Source of the DNA: Nitrospinota bacterium
GTDB taxonomy: Bacteria; UBA8248
Assembly (NCBI GenBank): GCA_030754595.1
Contig: JASLZZ010000084.1
Coordinates: 12,578 to 76,577 of the forward strand
Reading direction: 5' to 3'
DNA length: 64,000 nucleotides
Made by a program: the position numbers and the translations under genes. Under the pieces are notes generated by a model, which did no database searches, was not told the DNA's origin, and was given only the letters and a program-made list of their open reading frames with translations. This document shows positions 15,733-31,844 of the stretch, in pieces (the stretch's first letter is position 1; each line of letters starts with the position of its first letter).

Positions 15733-15756
15733 TTCAATCGCTCCCGTACCGGTCGC

Positions 15757-16770
15757 TTAGCTGTACGAAATCCGGGGATCGAGCCAGGCGTAGAGGAGAT
15801 CCACGACCAGATTCACGAATACGAATACGAATGCCAACAAGGCCACCGCCGCCTGGACGATGGGGTAGTCCTGGTTGCTGATGGCGTCCACCACCAAAAA
15901 CCCCACGCCCGGCCAGGCGAATACGGCCTCGGTAACGACGGTTCCGCCGAGGAGGATTCCCAATTCCAGCCCCACCAGCGTCACGACGGGGATCGAGGCG
16001 TTCTTGAGAGCGTGATGGAGGATGACCAGCCATTCGGCCACACCCTTCGATCGGGCGGTGCGGACGTAATCCATCTCGAGGACATCGAGCATCTGCGAGC
16101 GCACAAGGCGCGTAATGCGGGCGGTGGCGTACAGGCCCGCCGTGACCGCCGGAAGGATGATGTAGTACCAGGCCTCGAAGCCCGAGGTGGGAAGCCAGCC
16201 GAGATAGACCGAGAAAAATATGATGAGCAGGAGGCCCAGCCAAAAATTGGGCATGGACTGCCCGAACATCGATCCCACCGAGCTTGTATGATCGATCCAG
16301 GTGTTCTTGAAGGTGGCCGAGAGCACCCCCGCCGGTATCGAAATCAAAATCGCGATGACCACCGATGTGAATGCGAGGAGGACGGTATTCGGGAAGTGCT
16401 CCAGGACAAGGCCCATCGCGGGTATTTCGTGGCGGTATGAGAAGCCGAAATCCCCGCGTATGACGCCCAGGGTTTTCACCCGCTCGGCGTTTTCTATATC
16501 GACGTCGGAAGTCTTGATATTCTGAATTTCCCCTTCCAGAAAATAATCGACGGTATCCACCCCGAAGAGGAATTTGGCGAACTGGATGGGGAGCGGCTGG
16601 TCGAAGCCCATCTCCTTGGCGAAGGCGGCCACTTCCTCTTCGGTGGACTCCAGGGGCATCAGAATCGCGGCCGGGCTCCCCGTGATCTGGAGCATCGAAA
16701 AAACGATCACCAGAATCGCGGCGAAAACGATCAGGCTCTGAAGCACTCGGCGAATAATATATGCGCGCAT
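15757..16770 (-). CDS. Dpp/Opp-type ABC transporter permease (DppB-like)
   Basis: GDFGFS, PNFWLG, DYVRTARSKG, TEAVFAWPG, DPRI. Confidence 0.93.
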   Translation of the reverse strand: MRAYIIRRVLQSLIVFAAILVIVFSMLQITGSPAAILMPLESTEEEVAAFAKEMGFDQPLPIQFAKFLFGVDTVDYFLEGEIQNIKTSDVDIENAERVKTLGVIRGDFGFSYRHEIPAMGLVLEHFPNTVLLAFTSVVIAILISIPAGVLSATFKNTWIDHTSSVGSMFGQSMPNFWLGLLLIIFFSVYLGWLPTSGFEAWYYIILPAVTAGLYATARITRLVRSQMLDVLEMDYVRTARSKGVAEWLVILHHALKNASIPVVTLVGLELGILLGGTVVTEAVFAWPGVGFLVVDAISNQDYPIVQAAVALLAFVFVFVNLVVDLLYAWLDPRISYS

Positions 16771-17051
16771 ACGGCCATCCGTGGGCAAGGACAATCGGGA
16801 AAAAATATTCCGGACTCTTTTGTTCCGTTGGCAGCGTAATCCTCGCGTTCTTTTTTGCCGCCGTCAAGGCGGAAAACGGATACGGAGAAGGGCGGCCTCG
16901 GAGATTTCCGGGCCCCCGCCGGGGTGCGCAGGCGGAGCCGCGCACATGGACATCCAGGGAGCGAATCCCGTAGGATACCCTTTGTTCAACCCCAGGTTAA
17001 GTGTGGTTTTTATCGAAACTCCGCTACCACTCGGCGCGGAGGAGAGCGGTC

Positions 17052-19374: not shown

Positions 19375-20322
19375 TCAGGCAAAAATATCCTCCAGCGCCA
19401 TTTCGGGTTCAGGCTCAGGACTCGCCTCGGCGAACGCCACCGCCTCGGCCAACTCTTTCTCGACCGCCGCCCGGTGGCCCTCGGCCTCCGCTTCGGAGAG
19501 CCCGAACAGCCTCCCGGCTACCGTCAGCGGATCGCGCGCCTTCCACTCGTTCCATTCCTCCTCGTCCCGGTAGGAGCCGAATTTCTTGTCGAGGCGGGAG
19601 TGCCCGTAGTAGCGGTAGGTCTTCGCCTCGATCAGGGAGGGCCCCTCGCCCGCCCGCGCCCGCTTCACCGCCTCGGCCACCGCCTCGTGGACGGCGAGGA
19701 CGTCCATGCCGTCCACGGTGACGCCGGGTGCGCCGTAGCCCTGGGCGCGGGTGGAAATGTCTTCGACCGAAGTGGAGTATTCGGCACGGGTGGAGGAGGC
19801 GAAATGGTTGTTCTCGCAGAAAAAAACGACCGGGAGCTTCCAGATGGCGCAAAGGTTCATCGATTCGTGAAACGCACCCTGGTTCGAGGCCCCGTCCCCG
19901 AAAAACGGCACCGCCACCTGGCCTCGGCCGTTGAGCTGGAAGGCGAGGCCAATCCCGGCGGCCATCGGCATGTTCGAGCCCACGATGGAATGCGCTCCGT
20001 AGTGGCCCTTCGATACGTCGGCGATGTGCATCGAGCCGCCCTTGGCGTGGCAGAGCCCGGCCGTTTTCCCGAAGAGTTCGGCCATCATTTCAGGCAGCCG
20101 TGTTCCCTTGGCTATCGAATGGCCGTGCCCCCTGTGGGTGGTCAGAATTGCATCGTCGTCGTTCAGAGCCGAGCACACACCGACCGAGCAGGCTTCCTGG
20201 CCCGCGCTCACGTGGATGCCGCCCCGGATGATTCCTCCCTTCTCGAAAAGCTCTTGCGCCGTTTCCTCGAAACGGCGTATCCGCACCATCGTGCGGTACA
20301 TCTCGCCCAGCTTTTCCCTCAT
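19375..20322 (-). CDS. 2-oxoacid/acetoin dehydrogenase E1 alpha subunit
   Basis: GQEA, HRGHGH, KGGSMH, GDGASNQG...ENN, YRYYGH. Confidence 0.92.
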   Translation of the reverse strand: MREKLGEMYRTMVRIRRFEETAQELFEKGGIIRGGIHVSAGQEACSVGVCSALNDDDAILTTHRGHGHSIAKGTRLPEMMAELFGKTAGLCHAKGGSMHIADVSKGHYGAHSIVGSNMPMAAGIGLAFQLNGRGQVAVPFFGDGASNQGAFHESMNLCAIWKLPVVFFCENNHFASSTRAEYSTSVEDISTRAQGYGAPGVTVDGMDVLAVHEAVAEAVKRARAGEGPSLIEAKTYRYYGHSRLDKKFGSYRDEEEWNEWKARDPLTVAGRLFGLSEAEAEGHRAAVEKELAEAVAFAEASPEPEPEMALEDIFA

Positions 20323-20392
20323 AAAAACTCCCTTGGAATCAGGCACGAATATCTCCTCTCGAAAAACCAAAAATTTCGATCATTGGCACAGA

Positions 20393-21571
20393 CTATCCCC
20401 CCGTCCCGAAGCGGTCCATCCACCAGTCGGCGATCCAGTTGCCGCACATGGAGAGATTGTCGAAACAGCAGTGCTGGCTGCCGCCGTCCTCGACCCGGAA
20501 AATCTTGAGTTCTTTTTCGAGCGAGCCGCAGGCCGCGTAGAGGCGGTGGGCCATATCGACGGGGACAATGTTGTCGTCCTCGCCATGGGTAATGCAGATG
20601 GGCATCCGGATATTCTCGGCGACGCCGTCGAGGGTGTAGGCCCGGCATTTTTCCATGGCGGCGTCCATGTCGGGCATGCCAAGGACCCAGGGAAGCTGCC
20701 AGATGGCCGAGGAGGAGACGGTGCCGCCGGCCTCAAGGACCTTGCGGCGGTGGAGCCAGACCTCGTGGTAGTCGAAGTGGGCGCCCCAGGTGAGGCAGGC
20801 GGCGTAGCGGTGCTCAAAGGCGGCGATGCGCGGGGCGTAGTAGCCGCCCATGCTCATCGCCATGACGCCGATGCGGGAGGAATCGACCCCCTCTCGGGCG
20901 TCGAGGTAATCGAAAGCCGCCGTACCGGGGACCTCGTAATCCGGGCGGCTGGGGATTTTGCCGAGACGCAGGGTTTCACCCTGGCCGGGGCCGTCCACGC
21001 AGAGCACCCCGATGCCGCGCTCGCTGAGGAAGCGCCCTCCCCAAAGGACGGTGAATTCCTTCGAGGCGTCGAGGCCGTCGAAGAAGGCGATAGCCGGGTC
21101 GTTTCCGGTCGGGTTGAGGGGCGGTATCCACCAGGCGGGGAGCGGTCCCTCCTCGTAGGGGACTTCGACGCGCTCGAAGCCGGGAGTCTGAAGTTTCATC
21201 CCTTTTTCGTAGTGGGGGAGCATCTCGCGGTAGGAGGCGGCTTTTCTCGGGTCCTCGGGGTGGACGAAGCGCTCGCAGGTGAAGCGGTAGATGGCGCTCC
21301 GGACGTAGGCCCCGGCGGCTGTGCGAGCGTGGCCCTTTTTCTCTTCGGCCTCGGCGAGGGCGAGGACCTTGTCGGCCATATCGATCCAGGCGTCGTGCCA
21401 GGCCTCTCCGTCGCCCACCTTGTCCTGGAGACGCTTTCCGATCTGATCCACCTCGTAGAAGGAGGTTCCCCCTAACGGGGCGAGGTTGATCTCACTGCAC
21501 ATGATCTGGGACCAGAGGTAGTGCTCGGGGAAGTATCTGAACCACGATCCTGCGATTTCCTCGGCGCTCAT
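20393..21571 (-). CDS. Alpha/beta hydrolase, DHPON hydrolase-like (paralog 3)
   Basis: WFRYFP N-terminus shared with the other two paralogs; FFDGLD, MSMGGYY, HGEDD, GSQHC. Confidence 0.85.
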   Translation of the reverse strand: MSAEEIAGSWFRYFPEHYLWSQIMCSEINLAPLGGTSFYEVDQIGKRLQDKVGDGEAWHDAWIDMADKVLALAEAEEKKGHARTAAGAYVRSAIYRFTCERFVHPEDPRKAASYREMLPHYEKGMKLQTPGFERVEVPYEEGPLPAWWIPPLNPTGNDPAIAFFDGLDASKEFTVLWGGRFLSERGIGVLCVDGPGQGETLRLGKIPSRPDYEVPGTAAFDYLDAREGVDSSRIGVMAMSMGGYYAPRIAAFEHRYAACLTWGAHFDYHEVWLHRRKVLEAGGTVSSSAIWQLPWVLGMPDMDAAMEKCRAYTLDGVAENIRMPICITHGEDDNIVPVDMAHRLYAACGSLEKELKIFRVEDGGSQHCCFDNLSMCGNWIADWWMDRFGTGG

Positions 21572-26367: not shown

Positions 26368-27354
26368 ATGCCGTTCGAGCGCGACGAAAGTGACCTCGTC
26401 GAAGTGTATTACGAAAAAGGTTGGACGGACGGGCTTCCCGTCGTGCCCCCGACGCGAGAGAAGGTGGACGCCCTGCTTCGGGCGGGCGGTCTTCCCGCGG
26501 ACGACGTCCTCGGAGAAATCGCACCCAATTACGGCGCCGCCACCGGCGAGAAGGTCGCGATCAACGCTGTGATGGCGGGCTGCGCTCCCGAGCATATGCC
26601 CCTTGTCGTCTCGGGCGTCCGTATCATGGCGGACAAGGAATTCAACCTTCACGCGATCGGGGGAATGACCGATTCCGCCTCGCCCCTCGTCATCGTCAAC
26701 GGGCCCGCCCGAGAAGCGGGGGGCATTAACTGCGGAAACGGGGTTTTCGGGAACGGAACGCGCGGGAACGCCGTCGTCGGCCGAGCGTTGATGCTGGTGC
26801 TCGCCAACATCGGGGGTTCGCGGCCGGGCGGGATTTCCCGGACGATGTTCGGCTCGCCGGCAAGGTACTCCTACTGCATCGGCGAGAACGAGGAGGAAAG
26901 CCCCTGGGAGCCGCTTCACGTAGAGCGCGGGATCGAAGCTGGCCGGGGGGCGGTGACGATGCTCCCCTGCGAGTCGCCCCACGAGATTCGGATCGAGGGG
27001 GTGACTAAGGCGGAGGAGATGGCCGATATCCTGGGGCGCTCGATGTGCAGCGTCTGGTCGGCGAACAAGCATCATATTCACATCAGCGGGGTGATTCTGG
27101 CGCTGGGGCCGATGCATGCGGCCGTGTTCGGAGGCGCGGGCTGGAGCAAGGCTGCTACGCGGAACGTTATTTTTCAGTCTGCGATTATGCCCGACGAGGA
27201 AAACGGCTCCCCTTTGCGAAAGTTTTTGTCGCCCGAGGCTATTACGATAATCGTGGCGGGCGGCGCAGGTGGAATTTACAGCATGCTCTTGCCCGGCATC
27301 GCAGACTACATGGGGACGAACATGGTCACCCGGCCGGTCGAGCCCGCGGGGTAG
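26368..27354 (+). CDS. Conserved protein of the type found next to UGSC selenoproteins (unknown function)
   Basis: GWTDGLPVVPPT...EKVAINAVMAGC...VNGP...GENEEESPWEPLH...IIVAGG motif set; immediately upstream of the UGSC gene. Confidence 0.75.
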   Translation: MPFERDESDLVEVYYEKGWTDGLPVVPPTREKVDALLRAGGLPADDVLGEIAPNYGAATGEKVAINAVMAGCAPEHMPLVVSGVRIMADKEFNLHAIGGMTDSASPLVIVNGPAREAGGINCGNGVFGNGTRGNAVVGRALMLVLANIGGSRPGGISRTMFGSPARYSYCIGENEEESPWEPLHVERGIEAGRGAVTMLPCESPHEIRIEGVTKAEEMADILGRSMCSVWSANKHHIHISGVILALGPMHAAVFGGAGWSKAATRNVIFQSAIMPDEENGSPLRKFLSPEAITIIVAGGAGGIYSMLLPGIADYMGTNMVTRPVEPAG

Positions 27355-27409
27355 ACAGAAGTCCCCGGAGCGGCAGGCAGGCGCGGATTTTTTTCTGAAG
27401 GAGAGGATT

Positions 27410-27940
27410 ATGCCCGAGCTATTCGATCCGACCGCGAAGCCGAAGCGCCGCGTCGAGAACCTGGCGGTGCGCCCCGGCAGCCTCGCGGGAAAGGTGATTG
27501 GCCTTCTGGACATCGGCAAGCCGAAGGGGGATTGGTTTCTCGAGGCGGTGGGGGAGCTTCTCAGGGAGAACTACGGGGCCCGCGAGACGGTCTACTACCG
27601 CAAACCGACGCACGCCAAGCCCGCGCCCGGTGAGTTGGCCGAGGAGATCGCCCAGCGGTGCGACGCCGTTGTCGAGGCGCTCGCCTACTGAGGAAGCTGC
27701 ACGACGTGCAGTTTGCACGATGCGGCCTTTTTCGAGCGCTGGGGAGTGCCGGCGGCGCCGGTGGTGACGCGGGAGTTTCTTCAGGCGGGGGAATTTCAGG
27801 CGAAGGCCCTCTTCGGCGGAGACTACCCGATCGTTTTCACCCCTCATCCGGTCGCCCACATGGAAAAGGAAGAGTTCTCCCGGCTCGCGCAGGATGCGCT
27901 CGAGGGGATCGCCGGCCGGCTCATGTCCGCCTCCTCATAA
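27410..27940 (+). CDS. UGSC family selenoprotein (176 aa; Sec at codon 94, TGA 27689-27691)
   Basis: ORFs ending at 27691 and 27940 are in frame across one TGA: ...VEALAY-U-GSCTTCSLHDAAFFERWGVP... Strong RBS before 27410 and a SECIS-like hairpin downstream of the UGA. Confidence 0.9.
27692..27726 (+). promoter_or_regulatory. Candidate bacterial SECIS element
   Basis: GCUGCA-cga-CGUGCA-GUU-UGCACG-a-UGCGGC stem-loop with a G-starting apical loop after a 19-nt spacer from the UGA. An alternative fold AAGCUGCAC/GUGCAGUUU is also possible. Confidence 0.6.
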
Positions 27941-27967: not shown

Positions 27968-29710
27968 TTGAGCAACTCCGCTTTCCAGGTCCGTAAATGC
28001 GATGTGCTCATCCTGGGATCGGGGGGCGCCGGGCTGCTCGCGGCGCTGGCGGCCTACGAGGCCGACCCCGCCCTCGATATCCTCATCGCCGTCAAGGGCC
28101 TGTTCGGGAAAAGTGGGTGCACCCGCATGGTCCAGGGCGGCTACAACGTCGCCCTCTCCGATAGCGATTCGGTCGAAAACCACTTCATGGACACGGTGCG
28201 GGCGGGTGCCTGGCTCAACGACCAGGACCTCGCATGGGAACTCGTCAGCCGCGCTCCTGGCTGCATCCGCAGGCTCGAGACCGTCTGCGGCGCCTTCTTC
28301 GACCGGAGTCCGGACGGCGAGATCCACCAGAAGGCCTTCGCCGGCCAGAGTTTCGACCGCACCGTCCACAAAGGCGACCTCACCGGCATCGAACTCACGA
28401 ACCGCGCCTCCGAGCAGATAATCCGCCGAGGGATTCCCGTTCTCGAGGAGCGCCGCGCAATCGCTCTCTTGCCCGATTCGGGTGCGGCCGGCCGGGTCGC
28501 CGGGTCGATGCTCCTCGATATCCGGAGCGGTGAGTTCACCGCCGTCAACGCGAAATGCACCCTTCTCGCGACCGGCGGAGGCCCCACATTCTACAAATAC
28601 TCGGCCTGCGCGCAGGAGCTCGCCACCGACGGGATGGCGATGGCCTGGGAGGCGGGCGCGGACCTTTGCGACATGGAGATGGTCCAGTTCCATCCGACGG
28701 GAATTCTCACGGGCGAGGGACTCCAGATCACCGGAACCCTGCTGGAGGAGGGGCTGCGCGGCGCGGGTGGCCATCTGCTCAACGGCCGTGGTGAGCGCTA
28801 CATGGAGCGCTACGACCCCGAGCGGATGGAGCGCTCAACGCGCGACCTGGTGGCTCGCGCGGGCTACACCGAGATCAAGGAGGGCCGCGGCACCGAGAAC
28901 GGCGGCGTTTTCATCGACGTAAGCCATCTCGGGGCGGATTTCGTCCGAAAGAATTTCAGGGGGATGGTGGATCGATGCGCCGATTTGGGCTTCGATCTCG
29001 CGGGAGCGCCCGTCGAGGTCTCCCCGACGGCGCACTACATGATGGGTGGCGCGAAGATAGACACCGGCTGCCGGACGAGTCTCCCAGGCCTTTTCGCGGC
29101 GGGCGAGGACGCCGGCGGCACCCATGGGGCGAATCGCCTCGGTGGAAACGGGGTAGCGAACTCCACCGTGTTCGGCGAGGTGGCCGGGCGAGAGATGGCG
29201 GCCGAGGCCGGCGGCGCTCCGTTCGAGAGTTTTGATCGCGGCTCGGCTGAAGCGTCGGTTGAGGAAGCGTTGGCAGCCCTCGGCGACGGGGACTCTCCTT
29301 ATCCCGTCCGCGCCTCGCTCAAGGAGCTGATGTGGAAAAAAATCGGTCTTCGGCGCAACGGGGCCGACCTGGCTGCGGGCCTCGAGGAAATCGCCTCTCT
29401 CGGGGAGCGGGCGGCCCGGGCCCGCGCCGGTGGAGGCCGGGCCTACAACATCGCCTGGCAGAATGTCCTTGACGTTTGCAACCAGATCGCCGTGGCGGAG
29501 TTGATCGCACGGAGCGCCATCGAGCGCGACGAGAGTCGGGGCAGCCACTACCGGGACGACATTCCCGAGCAAAAACAGGGCGCGCTCTATAACGTTTTCA
29601 TTTCGAAGCGGGGCGAGAAGGCCGCCGTCGAACGCCGTCCGGTCCGCTTCACCCGTGTCAAGCCGGGCGAGGAACTCGCCGCCGCCGAGCCCGTCAATTT
29701 TATGGATTGA
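27968..29710 (+). CDS. Succinate dehydrogenase/fumarate reductase-like flavoprotein subunit (divergent)
   Basis: GSGGAG, LATGG, MEMVQFHPTG, STRD, AHYMMGG, HGANRLGGN, RDESRGSHYRDD. Confidence 0.9.
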   Translation: MSNSAFQVRKCDVLILGSGGAGLLAALAAYEADPALDILIAVKGLFGKSGCTRMVQGGYNVALSDSDSVENHFMDTVRAGAWLNDQDLAWELVSRAPGCIRRLETVCGAFFDRSPDGEIHQKAFAGQSFDRTVHKGDLTGIELTNRASEQIIRRGIPVLEERRAIALLPDSGAAGRVAGSMLLDIRSGEFTAVNAKCTLLATGGGPTFYKYSACAQELATDGMAMAWEAGADLCDMEMVQFHPTGILTGEGLQITGTLLEEGLRGAGGHLLNGRGERYMERYDPERMERSTRDLVARAGYTEIKEGRGTENGGVFIDVSHLGADFVRKNFRGMVDRCADLGFDLAGAPVEVSPTAHYMMGGAKIDTGCRTSLPGLFAAGEDAGGTHGANRLGGNGVANSTVFGEVAGREMAAEAGGAPFESFDRGSAEASVEEALAALGDGDSPYPVRASLKELMWKKIGLRRNGADLAAGLEEIASLGERAARARAGGGRAYNIAWQNVLDVCNQIAVAELIARSAIERDESRGSHYRDDIPEQKQGALYNVFISKRGEKAAVERRPVRFTRVKPGEELAAAEPVNFMD

Positions 29711-29744
29711 TGACTGAGAAATCAGGCATGAGAAAGGAGATGTG

Positions 29745-30089
29745 ATGGCTTCCCTGTCCGGCCCTCCGGCCCGGCCCCCGTTTTGGAATCTTTCGGCGTG
29801 GCGGGCCATGTATCCGGGCATGTGGGCGTGGGTGATTCAGCGCCTCTCGGCTGTGGTGCTGCTCGTTATTTTTCCTTTCCATGTCCTGAATCCCTACAAT
29901 AAGTGGCTGCGGATTGCCGTGCTGGCGCTCGTGATTCTTCACGGAATGCACGGCCTCAAGGTGATTTTCACCGATTTCGGGTTTCCCGCGCGGCATCAAC
30001 GCAAGTTGCTTTGGGTCTTGACGGCGCTAGGAGCCGCCGCGTTTTTCTGGCTCGCCTATCTCCGAAAGGCCTTTTGGGGATTTTTTTGA
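29745..30089 (+). CDS. SdhC-like cytochrome b membrane anchor
   Basis: GMWAWVIQRLS, three TM segments, H...HG..GLKVI..D; its TGA overlaps the next ATG. Confidence 0.82.
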   Translation: MASLSGPPARPPFWNLSAWRAMYPGMWAWVIQRLSAVVLLVIFPFHVLNPYNKWLRIAVLALVILHGMHGLKVIFTDFGFPARHQRKLLWVLTALGAAAFFWLAYLRKAFWGFF

Positions 30090-30847
30090 TGGTGGGTGGC
30101 GGCGTCATTTTCCGCGTTCGGCGCGGCGGCGAGGCGGGCGATCCCCAAGAGCGATACCAGACCTACGCCATCACGCCGCGCCCGAGGATGACCGTCCTCG
30201 ACGTGCTGACCTCCATCCAGAGCGAACAGGACGCCTCCCTTGTGTTTCGCTATTCCTGCCGGGTGGGAATGTGCGGAACCTGCGCCCTCCGGGTGAACGG
30301 GCGGCCCCGCTGGGCCTGCCGGACGCTGATCACGGAGCTGGGCGAAAGCGTAACCCTCGAGCCACTGGCGAATTTCCCCCTCATCCGCGATCTGGCCGTG
30401 GACATGACGCCCTTCAGCGACGGCCTGAAACGCGTGCGGGCCTGGGCCGAGCCCACCGAGGCCGCCGCCTCCGCTCCGGCGCGGATCCTTCCCAGCAGTA
30501 GAGAGCGGGTCCGGATCGATCCCCATATCGAGTGCATCACCTGCGGTATCTGCTATTCTGCCTGCTCCATGCTGGGACACGATCCGGCTTTTCTGGGACC
30601 CGCGGCGCTCAACCGGGCCTATACCCTGGTGTGTGACAGCCGAGACGCGGCGAGCGCGGAGCGGTTGGCCGAGGTGTCCGGGGAGCAGGGCATCTGGCGG
30701 TGCCACAGCCAGTTCAACTGCACCGAGGCCTGCCCAAAAGGAATCAGTCCGGCCACCGCCATTCAGGGCCTCAAGCGACAGGCGGCGGCGAGCGGGGCGA
30801 AATCTTTTGTCTCGTCCATCATCGGGGGCCGCGCCCCCGGAGCATAA
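30089..30847 (+). CDS. SdhB/FrdB-like iron-sulfur subunit
   Basis: SCRVGMCGTC...C (2Fe-2S), CITCGICYSAC and CHSQFNCTEACP cluster motifs; DLAVD. Confidence 0.92.
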   Translation: MVGGGVIFRVRRGGEAGDPQERYQTYAITPRPRMTVLDVLTSIQSEQDASLVFRYSCRVGMCGTCALRVNGRPRWACRTLITELGESVTLEPLANFPLIRDLAVDMTPFSDGLKRVRAWAEPTEAAASAPARILPSSRERVRIDPHIECITCGICYSACSMLGHDPAFLGPAALNRAYTLVCDSRDAASAERLAEVSGEQGIWRCHSQFNCTEACPKGISPATAIQGLKRQAAASGAKSFVSSIIGGRAPGA

Positions 30848-30893
30848 TAATAATTATCTCTCCTACAGGAGAGATTTTTAGGAGGATCAGGCG

Positions 30894-31844
30894 ATGCCTA
30901 CCGCAACCGGCGCCTTCATCGGCGCCGACCTTACCCGGGAAGTCGCTTTCGAGCTCAACCGACGCGCTGCGATTCACATTCCGGGCGATGTCCGCCAGAG
31001 CGTTCGTGGCATGGCCGAGCGCGAGACCGAGCGGCTGTCGAAATTCGTCCTGCTCGAAATCGTGAACAACTACGAGGTGGCGGACGAGGACCTCCGTCCC
31101 ATGTGCGCCGACACCGGGCTTCCGCGCTTTTACGCCAAGGTTGGGAACGAGGCACGCCTTGAGGGCGGTTTCGTCGCTTTCGAGAGGAGCATTCGCGAGG
31201 CGACTGCCCGCGCGACGACTGAAATTCCCCTTCGCCCGAACCGCGTTCATCCGATCACGCGGTACGATTACAACAACAACGTCGGCATCCACGCGCCGAG
31301 CGTGGACTACTCCTGGGAGCCCGGGGCCGACTGGGTGGAAATGACCGCCTTCCACAAGGGGGGCCTGTTTGGCGGCGACTACCGGATGCTCTTCCCCGGG
31401 GACGGAATCGACGGAATCCGCCGATTCTACCTCGATGTCATCAGCGAGTTTTTCAAGCGCGGGCTTTCCTGCCAGCCGGCCATCGTCGGCATCGGCATCG
31501 GCGGGACGAAGGATACCTGCGTGAAACTGGCAAAGGAGGCGGCCTGCCTGCGCGTGGTGGGCGACCGGAATCCCGATCCACAGATCGCCGATCTCGAGGA
31601 CGAGCTCGTCGAACTGGGCAAGCGATCCACCCTCGGTGCGATGGGCTTCAAGGGCGAAGGCGCGGTGATGGACGCCCACATCGAGGTCGCCTACACTCAC
31701 ACGGGCGGGATGCCCGTTTCCATTCACCACCAATGTTTCGCCCTGCGGCGGAGCACCGCGCGGATCCACCCGGACGGGGAGGTCGAGTACCGCGAGGACC
31801 CGCGGTGGTTCACCGATTACTACCGCCGCGATTCGGTGAGTTGA
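30894..31844 (+). CDS. Fe-S hydro-lyase alpha subunit (class I fumarase / tartrate dehydratase family, divergent)
   Basis: PMCADTG, PLRPN, CQPAIVGIGIGG, LGAMGFKG, CFALRR. Confidence 0.88.
   Translation: MPTATGAFIGADLTREVAFELNRRAAIHIPGDVRQSVRGMAERETERLSKFVLLEIVNNYEVADEDLRPMCADTGLPRFYAKVGNEARLEGGFVAFERSIREATARATTEIPLRPNRVHPITRYDYNNNVGIHAPSVDYSWEPGADWVEMTAFHKGGLFGGDYRMLFPGDGIDGIRRFYLDVISEFFKRGLSCQPAIVGIGIGGTKDTCVKLAKEAACLRVVGDRNPDPQIADLEDELVELGKRSTLGAMGFKGEGAVMDAHIEVAYTHTGGMPVSIHHQCFALRRSTARIHPDGEVEYREDPRWFTDYYRRDSVS

Follow-up and report, generated by a model that had tools for sequence, protein, structure and literature searches.

The gene at positions 27410-27940 of the DNA analysed here encodes a 176-residue selenoprotein which, judged by sequence, is a member of the catalogued UGSC family. 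It lies within a stretch of 64,000 nucleotides from a Nitrospinota bacterium (GTDB lineage Bacteria; UBA8248; GenBank assembly GCA_030754595.1, contig JASLZZ010000084.1, positions 12,578 to 76,577 of the forward strand), and we refer to this whole stretch as the window. We conclude from comparison with its relatives that the UGA at codon 94 of this gene is read as selenocysteine (Sec). The explanation that we favour, and consider likely, is that the UGSC protein is a minimal, remote homologue of the Sec-bearing domain of the selenoproteins GrdB and PrdB, and that it forms a two-subunit enzyme with the product of the gene immediately upstream, which we call the partner. The features that concern the coding sequences are as follows.

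27410..27940, + strand: UGSC-family selenoprotein gene, 176 codons plus a TAA stop, translated with TGA as Sec (U)
27689..27691, + strand: UGA codon read as selenocysteine (U94), the single internal in-frame TGA, at codon 94
27398..27403, + strand: Shine-Dalgarno box AAGGAG, separated by 6 nt from the start codon (ATG) of the selenoprotein gene and visible in the sequence itself
26368..27354, + strand: partner gene, an open reading frame (ORF) encoding 328 amino acids (aa), 'Unknown_1' domain family by motif match to Fig. S1A of PMC2398784

When ORFs are listed under translation table 11 the selenoprotein frame is split into two segments, 27269-27691 and 27713-27940, that share the same frame. 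A first-pass annotation, made from the sequence alone, had joined two such fragments in frame through the TGA to give a string with AY-U, and translation of 27410-27940 confirms a single frame of 176 residues containing ...EALAY-U-GSCTTCSLHDAAFFERWGVP..., or over a longer segment ...CDAVVEALAY-U94-GSCTTCSLHDAAFFERWGVPAAPVV.... The codon at 27689-27691 is unchanged in covering contigs assembled from four runs in four studies, one of these runs being possibly the source of the window DNA, and the contigs differ from the window only at positions 27153, 27184 and 27915. Metagenomes from a dozen studies, of seawater and marine origin, contain near-identical DNA; the three RNA runs among those listed contained a fraction of 0.04 or less of the sampled words.

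Membership of the UGSC family follows from two models, NCBIfam NF041046 "UGSC family (seleno)protein" (136.4 bits against a cut-off of 125, residues 27-170) and Pfam PF24696 "UGSC" (158.2 bits against a cut-off of 25, residues 4-171). The first-pass annotation called the selenoprotein hidden, and this description has to be dropped, since catalogues already list the family as well as its association with the partner domain. Under the name UGSC-containing protein, the family was described as a selenoprotein without known function in two papers by Zhang and Gladyshev (PMC1976440, 2007; PMC2398784, 2008). The latter counts it among the major families of the Global Ocean Sampling selenoproteome (255 sequences with Sec, 21 with Cys) and describes it as "likely" thioredoxin (Trx)-fold. 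More recent reviews still list UGSC without a function (PMC9312934, 2022; PMC13188914, 2026), the second grouping it with selenoproteins of largely uncharacterized function.

Several observations bear on the reading of the UGA codon. A scan of one genome per species yielded at least 600 relatives of the gene, and the best 80 loci were analysed; TGA occupies the Sec column in all 80, and because the search patterns were placed elsewhere in the protein the scan did not favour TGA. A census of the window's phylum finds the UGSC family in 43 of 51 genomes, with up to nine matches each, and exactly one TGA is present in 150 of 150 phylum matches among the matches listed, with 89 further matches in existence. 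When 1.84 billion representative proteins were searched with a profile, 4605 scored at E ≤0.001, and from the best 150 we kept the 123 of 150-300 aa, dropping 27 truncated or fused rows. The first-pass annotation had proposed a search for Cys homologues at the UGA position, and these prove to be the rule, with Cys in 119 of the 123 full-length, stop-free homologues and Ser (3) or Gly (1) in the remainder. Orthologues in four related genomes keep the string AY-U-GSCTTC together with the protein sequence downstream of it. The five near-length database matches to the selenoprotein are all truncated N-terminal halves of 98-103 aa, and for genome annotation it is of practical importance that genes of this family are routinely split at the UGA.

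Codon usage downstream of the UGA is also constrained. The Ser seven codons after it is specified by AGT in 80 of 80 cases where Ser is present, whereas the Ser two codons after it uses six different codons (AGT in 15 of 83); similarly, the Cys before the constrained Ser is encoded by TGC in 82 of 83 sequences, compared to 64 of 83 for the earlier Cys. The constrained Cys and Ser codons build the apical part of a hairpin resembling a selenocysteine insertion sequence (SECIS), for which two features can be listed.

27689..27734, + strand: SECIS-like two-tier hairpin, from the minimum-free-energy fold; lower tier partly conserved
27705..27719, + strand: apical SECIS hairpin CGUGC-AGUUU-GCACG, conserved, with pairing kept in 99.4% of cells over 83 sequences

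Across the homologues the apical hairpin has 5-6 bp and the form CGUGC-AGUKU-GCACG, and the G and U of its loop are nt 23-24 when counted from the U of UGA. The essential G and U of the Escherichia coli fdhF SECIS occupy this same position. Two results count against the structure: its energy is unremarkable for G+C-rich sequence (z = -1.06, with an equal or better fold in 29 of 200 shuffles), and covariation within the two tiers is not above that of shuffles in the 83 sequences. The lower helix is paired in 57.7% of cells in the 83 homologous genes, again not above shuffles; at its five outermost positions (columns 1-5 with 42-46) standard pairing is seen in 59 to 83 of the 83 sequences, and the middle of the lower stem, in the window's register, is paired in a minority of them. 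An Rfam scan of 27500-27900 gave chance-level matches only (E 3.7 and 5.2). The two-tier hairpin originally proposed after the UGA is thus upheld in that the RNA is predicted to fold this way and the apical tier is conserved, but in the lower tier conservation is limited to the outermost pairs. We conclude from the aligned sequences that a bacterial SECIS-type hairpin is present shortly 3' of the UGA.

The genome also encodes the machinery for Sec insertion, as had been predicted. The selA (551.8 bits) and selB (364.5 bits) genes are both on own-genome contig C113, a tRNA-SeC(tca) is on contig C102, and selD (345 bits) is at C16:24543-25505 (locus L011); the selD gene contains one in-frame TGA, and its product is, by sequence, itself a Sec-containing selenophosphate synthetase. 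The claim that this is a genuine selenoprotein gene is sound, with the family models, the invariant TGA, the AGT constraint and the Cys homologues all in agreement. We note that selA or selB (5 of 80 loci each) is situated ≤5 kb from the pair of partner and UGSC genes at, for example, L085:5735-7141 and L092:1691-3388, and so UGSC may be one of the chief users of Sec machinery there.

The relationship to GrdB and PrdB is more distant and was evaluated by profile comparison. The comparators were GrdB-like and PrdB-like selenoproteins from the same genome and phylum, with strings such as ...LTST-U-GTSTRSG...ELEKAGIP and ...U-GTCTRCG...EIEREGLP in the GrdB-like group and ...IPV-U-PLCxRSG...EIEKAGI in the short PrdB-like group; the spacing of U, +3, E+15, G+18 and P+20 is equal in UGSC and the comparators. 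HHalign comparison of 45 UGSC sequences with 34 GrdB/PrdB-like sequences gives a probability of 90.9% (E 1.1e-6) over 154 columns with Sec aligned on Sec, the controls reaching 1.5% with a reversed target and at most 0.3% with five column shuffles. With richer profiles (168 against 48 sequences) the probability is 96.1% (E 3.3e-9), again with Sec on Sec, and the controls give 0.1% with the reversed target and at most 0.5% with ten column shuffles. Using these richer profiles, UGSC residues 90-116 match on their own with P 1.1e-6, and residues 117-176, which do not include the Sec motif, match in collinear register with P 5.7e-5; for this C-terminal part by itself the smaller profiles had given only P 0.03. 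There are also weak reciprocal hmmscan matches in the Sec region among 18,950 models, of UGSC to TIGR01917 (E 0.21) and of a GrdB-like protein to NF041046 (E 0.035). At the profile level the Sec-bearing domain shares with selenoprotein B a pattern of strand, U-x-x-C helix, E..G(I/V)P strand and H-P loop.

Several observations nonetheless weigh against this relationship. UGSC residues 1-89 alone do not match GrdB/PrdB significantly (P 0.05-0.07), and the similarity is carried mainly by 27 residues around the Sec and the C-terminal part. None of the Grd/Prd models examined (TIGR01917, TIGR01918, TIGR04483 and PF07355) is reached, the best being TIGR01917 with 10.4 bits against a cut-off of 602; PF07355 does not match the UGSC protein even at E 10 and misses the UGSC loci of the genome. 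Searches of PDB sequences with the PrdB-like and GrdB-like proteins gave 0 matches, and the best match in such a search with the UGSC profile has an E of only 0.28. Pfam scans of 21 ORFs between 14.8 and 39.7 kb revealed no Grd/Prd accessory genes (grdA, grdC, grdD, prdC and others) nearby. The pattern U-x-x-C-x-x-C-x-x-H is not kept either, with Cys100 present in 36 and His103 in 35 of the 123 Cys homologues, these two residues being specific to Sec-type members.

UGSC falls outside the Grd/Prd families, since no model cut-off is approached. The GrdB/PrdB resemblance suggested in the first-pass annotation is nonetheless partly supported, by the alignment of Sec on Sec and the low controls in a profile comparison such as it had recommended, although it fails for all of the Grd/Prd family models. 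The annotation also suggested shared chemistry, which would make reductive C-N cleavage through a Se-C intermediate a conjectural activity of UGSC. We consider it quite probable that the Sec domain of UGSC is truly homologous to that of GrdB/PrdB. The passages retrieved from literature mentioning both UGSC and GrdB do not state this resemblance, Pfam and InterPro family notes being outside that search, and the quantitative support for it is a useful addition.

The partner ORF ends 55 nt upstream of the selenoprotein gene, and its product has no Pfam or NCBIfam match even at E 10. At least 6813 homologues are nonetheless found at E ≤0.001 among 8000 scored candidates, with the source name 'hypothetical protein' in all 120 rows among the matches listed, and the invariant residues include D21, C72 (in AINAVMAGC), R132, N134, R139, E173, E175 and H250. 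Going by their names, the nearest of these homologues point to a Nitrospinota bacterium. A partner homologue is present in 72 of the 80 UGSC loci, and in 69 it immediately precedes UGSC on the same strand; among the eight loci where it was not found, five have <750 nt of sequence on the 5' side of the Sec codon. In at least seven loci the TGA stop of the partner gene overlaps the UGSC ATG as ATGA, an arrangement indicative of translational coupling. Moreover, a partner-like domain is found in all 16 UGSC-family representatives of ≥280 aa, in the order UGSC-partner in 15 and partner-UGSC in one, and one partner homologue has an N-terminal ferredoxin-thioredoxin reductase beta domain fused to it. 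In the genome itself the UGSC copy on contig C109 is immediately preceded by a partner paralogue, and three tandem partner paralogues are ~2.7 kb upstream of the copy on C116.

An "Unknown_1" domain fused to UGSC is drawn in Fig. S1A of PMC2398784 (Zhang and Gladyshev, 2008), and its AINAVMAGC(x)PE...FN(L/I)H...VNGP block with a conserved Cys is also present in the window's 328-aa protein; since the partner block corresponds to Unknown_1, the link between UGSC and partner is already published. What can be added is that the partner is almost obligatory, with its at least 6813 homologues and no family model. An AlphaFold2 model of the partner (mean predicted local distance difference test score, pLDDT, 86.8) has no clear structural relative.

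HHalign gives 0.1% for the partner against 23 GrdE/GrdG-like proteins of the phylum and 0.3% against the GrdB N-domain, to which it is thus unrelated, and both results count against a close parallel with the glycine and proline reductases. Comparisons of the partner with UGSC, with GrdE-like proteins and with full-length GrdB are all within 0.1-0.3%, and UGSC against GrdE-like proteins gives 0.9%. The earlier proposal that the upstream 328-aa protein is the partner subunit thus holds insofar as it is conserved, adjoining and often fused, but it is unrelated to the GrdE/PrdA pyruvoyl proproteins. UGSC and the 328-aa protein probably work together as a two-subunit enzyme, their binding being argued from gene order and fusions. 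Versions of Cys type, and fused ones, also exist, and these can be expressed without Sec machinery.

Some further observations concern the paralogues. The genome has more partner paralogues (six) than UGSC genes (three), and the paralogue on contig C50 has no adjoining UGSC gene. At C116:5511-11827, part of which is covered by locus L017, the second UGSC gene is followed directly by an enoyl-CoA hydratase gene, and on the opposite strand there is a long ORF that was judged by eye, without a family scan, to be molybdenum-hydroxylase-like.

The AlphaFold2 model of UGSC, built from 45 sequences, has a pLDDT of 91.4 and a predicted template modelling score of 0.87, and consists of five successive beta-alpha units with Sec94 between the strand 86-92 and the helix 95-110. 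The PDB matches listed for the model are flavodoxin, CheY, short-chain dehydrogenase/reductase and periplasmic-binding-protein domains, which are flavodoxin/Rossmann-like; no thioredoxin-fold entry is among the matches listed, an absence that does not exclude that fold. As part of the explanation that we hold likely, the protein is predicted to be a single flavodoxin/Rossmann-like (beta-alpha)5 domain. Within the Sec string only U/C94, G95 and C97 are conserved family-wide, and other conserved residues around the site are K37, K65, D104, E109 and H146-P147. Cys97 is one turn after Sec94 at the start of helix 3, and a selenenylsulfide is therefore possible.

A plausible course of events can be outlined. 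SelB and tRNA-Sec read UGA94 as Sec, guided by the small hairpin 16-30 nt downstream, and the resulting UGSC domain is most likely remotely homologous to the C-terminal, Sec-bearing domain that selenoprotein B has in D-proline reductase and in the glycine, sarcosine and betaine reductases. The substrate would be bound by the partner, with Sec94 acting as nucleophile or redox centre; Cys97 could then resolve the intermediate to a selenenylsulfide, and the Se-S bond might be re-reduced by a donor of the thioredoxin or ferredoxin type.

The alternative that fares best is that UGSC is a dedicated small redox carrier, like thioredoxin or GrdA, which does no more than hand on electrons, by selenenylsulfide exchange, to a partner in which all of the substrate chemistry happens. 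The restriction of family-wide conservation in the Sec string to a CxxC-like pair and the intervening G95 is what such a carrier might show, the partner has an invariant Cys72 of its own, and the ferredoxin-thioredoxin reductase domain fused to one partner could be seen in the same light. However, the profile similarity is to the Sec domain of GrdB/PrdB that attacks substrate and not to the Trx fold, the arrangement in the AlphaFold2 model does not look thioredoxin-like, and the conservation of K37, K65, D104, E109 and H146-P147 seems to exceed the needs of a simple carrier; on balance we think this alternative rather unlikely.

The likeness to GrdB/PrdB could also be convergent or generic, reflecting an arrangement that recurs in Rossmann-like folds, in which a redox U/CxxC at the N-terminus of a helix comes after a beta strand and is followed by E..G.P and the next strand. 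Such an origin would not readily account for the collinear match of the C-terminal 60 residues in which the Sec motif plays no part, for the rise in HHalign probability when both profiles are enriched, for weak hmmscan matches that are reciprocal among so many models, or for the identical spacing of U, C+3, E+15, G+18 and P+20, and we regard it as unlikely, placing it behind the carrier. It is improbable that the string U/C-x-x-C(-x-x-C)-x-x-H-D is a metal or cluster site and the protein a metallo-cofactor carrier: three thiol/selenol ligands with a His and an Asp do fall within 11 residues and are invariant in 45 Sec-type sequences, but in the Cys-type homologues the third Cys is replaced by Trp in 40 and by Ala in 19 of 123, and with His103 so poorly kept as well the extra ligands are not a feature of the family. 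That the TGA is a genuine stop codon or has arisen by error, leaving two small ORFs or a broken gene, would agree with the split frame under table 11 and the unremarkable hairpin energy, but is very hard to reconcile with a TGA conserved at one column in every locus and listed phylum match, Cys in its place in uninterrupted homologues, a downstream half conserved as protein in the orthologues, a complete Sec machinery and an identical codon in the contigs of four runs, and we give it almost no credence.

Around the pair of genes in the window there are peptide ABC transport genes, an FAA hydrolase, an M24 peptidase and a divergent transporter of the divalent-anion/Na+ symporter family (DASS), and downstream of it are genes for an Sdh/Frd-type flavoprotein, cytochrome b and Fe-S subunits, a class I fumarase, an M20 peptidase and two acyl-CoA dehydrogenases. 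The Sdh/Frd-type operon occupies 27968-31844 and is followed by the gene for the class I fumarase alpha subunit; its flavoprotein scores best on the thiol:fumarate reductase model TfrA, with 553 bits, below the cut-off of 718. The order DASS-partner-UGSC-SdhA is kept in three of three loci of the same genus, and for two other genera neither the DASS nor the SdhA neighbour was found within flanks of roughly 1.5 kb. Across the 80 loci no third gene is conserved, the commonest being acyl-CoA dehydrogenase (15 of 80) in a picking of neighbour ORFs that is crude and includes shadow ORFs. Beyond the pair the neighbours vary and so indicate no substrate, a further point against the favoured explanation.

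Since the pair in this genus is fixed between a DASS transporter and a fumarate-reductase-like operon, the substrate here could be a C4-dicarboxylate derivative. We suggest tentatively, as a possibility that still falls well short of being probable, that UGSC and 'Unknown_1' constitute a widespread pyruvoyl-independent, Se-dependent reductase in which a minimal protein B module, of common descent with that of the glycine and proline reductases, has joined a different subunit for substrate binding and is recycled by a donor of the thioredoxin or ferredoxin type, with such a C4-dicarboxylate derivative as its substrate in this organism. Elsewhere in the window two long ORFs have no Pfam hit, 20024-21472 (+ strand, 483 aa) and 15737-16945 (- strand, 403 aa); the latter, whose G+C at third positions is low (0.42), is a doubtful gene.

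The genome contains other selenoproteins related to these systems. Two full-length GrdB-like selenoproteins are encoded, on contigs C66 (L019) and C18 (L020), with the strings ...LTST-U-GTSTRSG and ...LPAT-U-GTGTRSG, both lacking a Cys at +3. The C66 locus, with reading frames L019:1258-2559 and L019:2583-3860 (both - strand), has a GrdG/FarE-like subunit gene just upstream of the GrdB-like gene, the best models being those of sarcosine reductase GrdF/GrdG, all below cut-off. Such GrdB-like/GrdG-like pairs occur throughout the phylum; in a marine lineage resembling Nitrospinota they are unexpected. There are also three short PrdB-like selenoproteins, on C108 (L021:1126-1986, - strand), C109 (L022:1405-2310, + strand) and C94 (L023:1369-2169, + strand), with V-U-PLCxRS or A-U-GLCNRS strings; they match TIGR04483 at E 4e-35 to 6e-47, below the cut-off, and have no PrdA nearby. 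Because PF07355 ends just before the Sec, these PrdB-like proteins resemble complete, Cys-less ORFs in ordinary annotation.

Compared to known systems, the window protein agrees with the UGSC family in its full-length match, its U-G-S-C motif, its pattern of Sec and Cys and its marine setting. Its orthologue group departs from the family in that Tyr replaces a near-universal Asp before the Sec: Tyr93 (27686-27688) directly precedes the Sec, Asp is at this position in 117 of the 123 full-length stop-free homologues, and the best 80 Sec-type loci have Asp (75) or Gly (5). The AY-U string is kept in four orthologues from related genomes, and this Tyr-for-Asp variant beside the Sec is the only qualitative addition that the window gene makes to the family.

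The thioredoxin-fold selenoproteins with UxxC or CxxU motifs (Trx-like, peroxiredoxin-like and SelW-like) resemble UGSC in having Sec and Cys three residues apart where a helix begins and, probably, in thiol-type redox cycling; they differ from the UGSC model with its five parallel beta-alpha units. The "likely Trx-like fold" of the literature is at variance with the (beta-alpha)5 flavodoxin/Rossmann-like model, and the Sec domain of UGSC appears to be related instead to the substrate-attacking domain of GrdB/PrdB. In GrdB, GrdF, GrdH and PrdB, as in UGSC, a buried beta strand leads into a helix that has the Sec at its start, and GrdB/PrdB and UGSC have in common a C at +3 (in most), E+15, G+18 and P+20, followed by an H-P loop. 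UGSC does not have the roughly 47-residue insertion that GrdB/PrdB carry after strand 1, and whereas they are paired with a pyruvoyl proprotein, GrdE or PrdA, the UGSC partner is not of that type. PrdB, like UGSC, dispenses with the N-terminal domain of GrdB.

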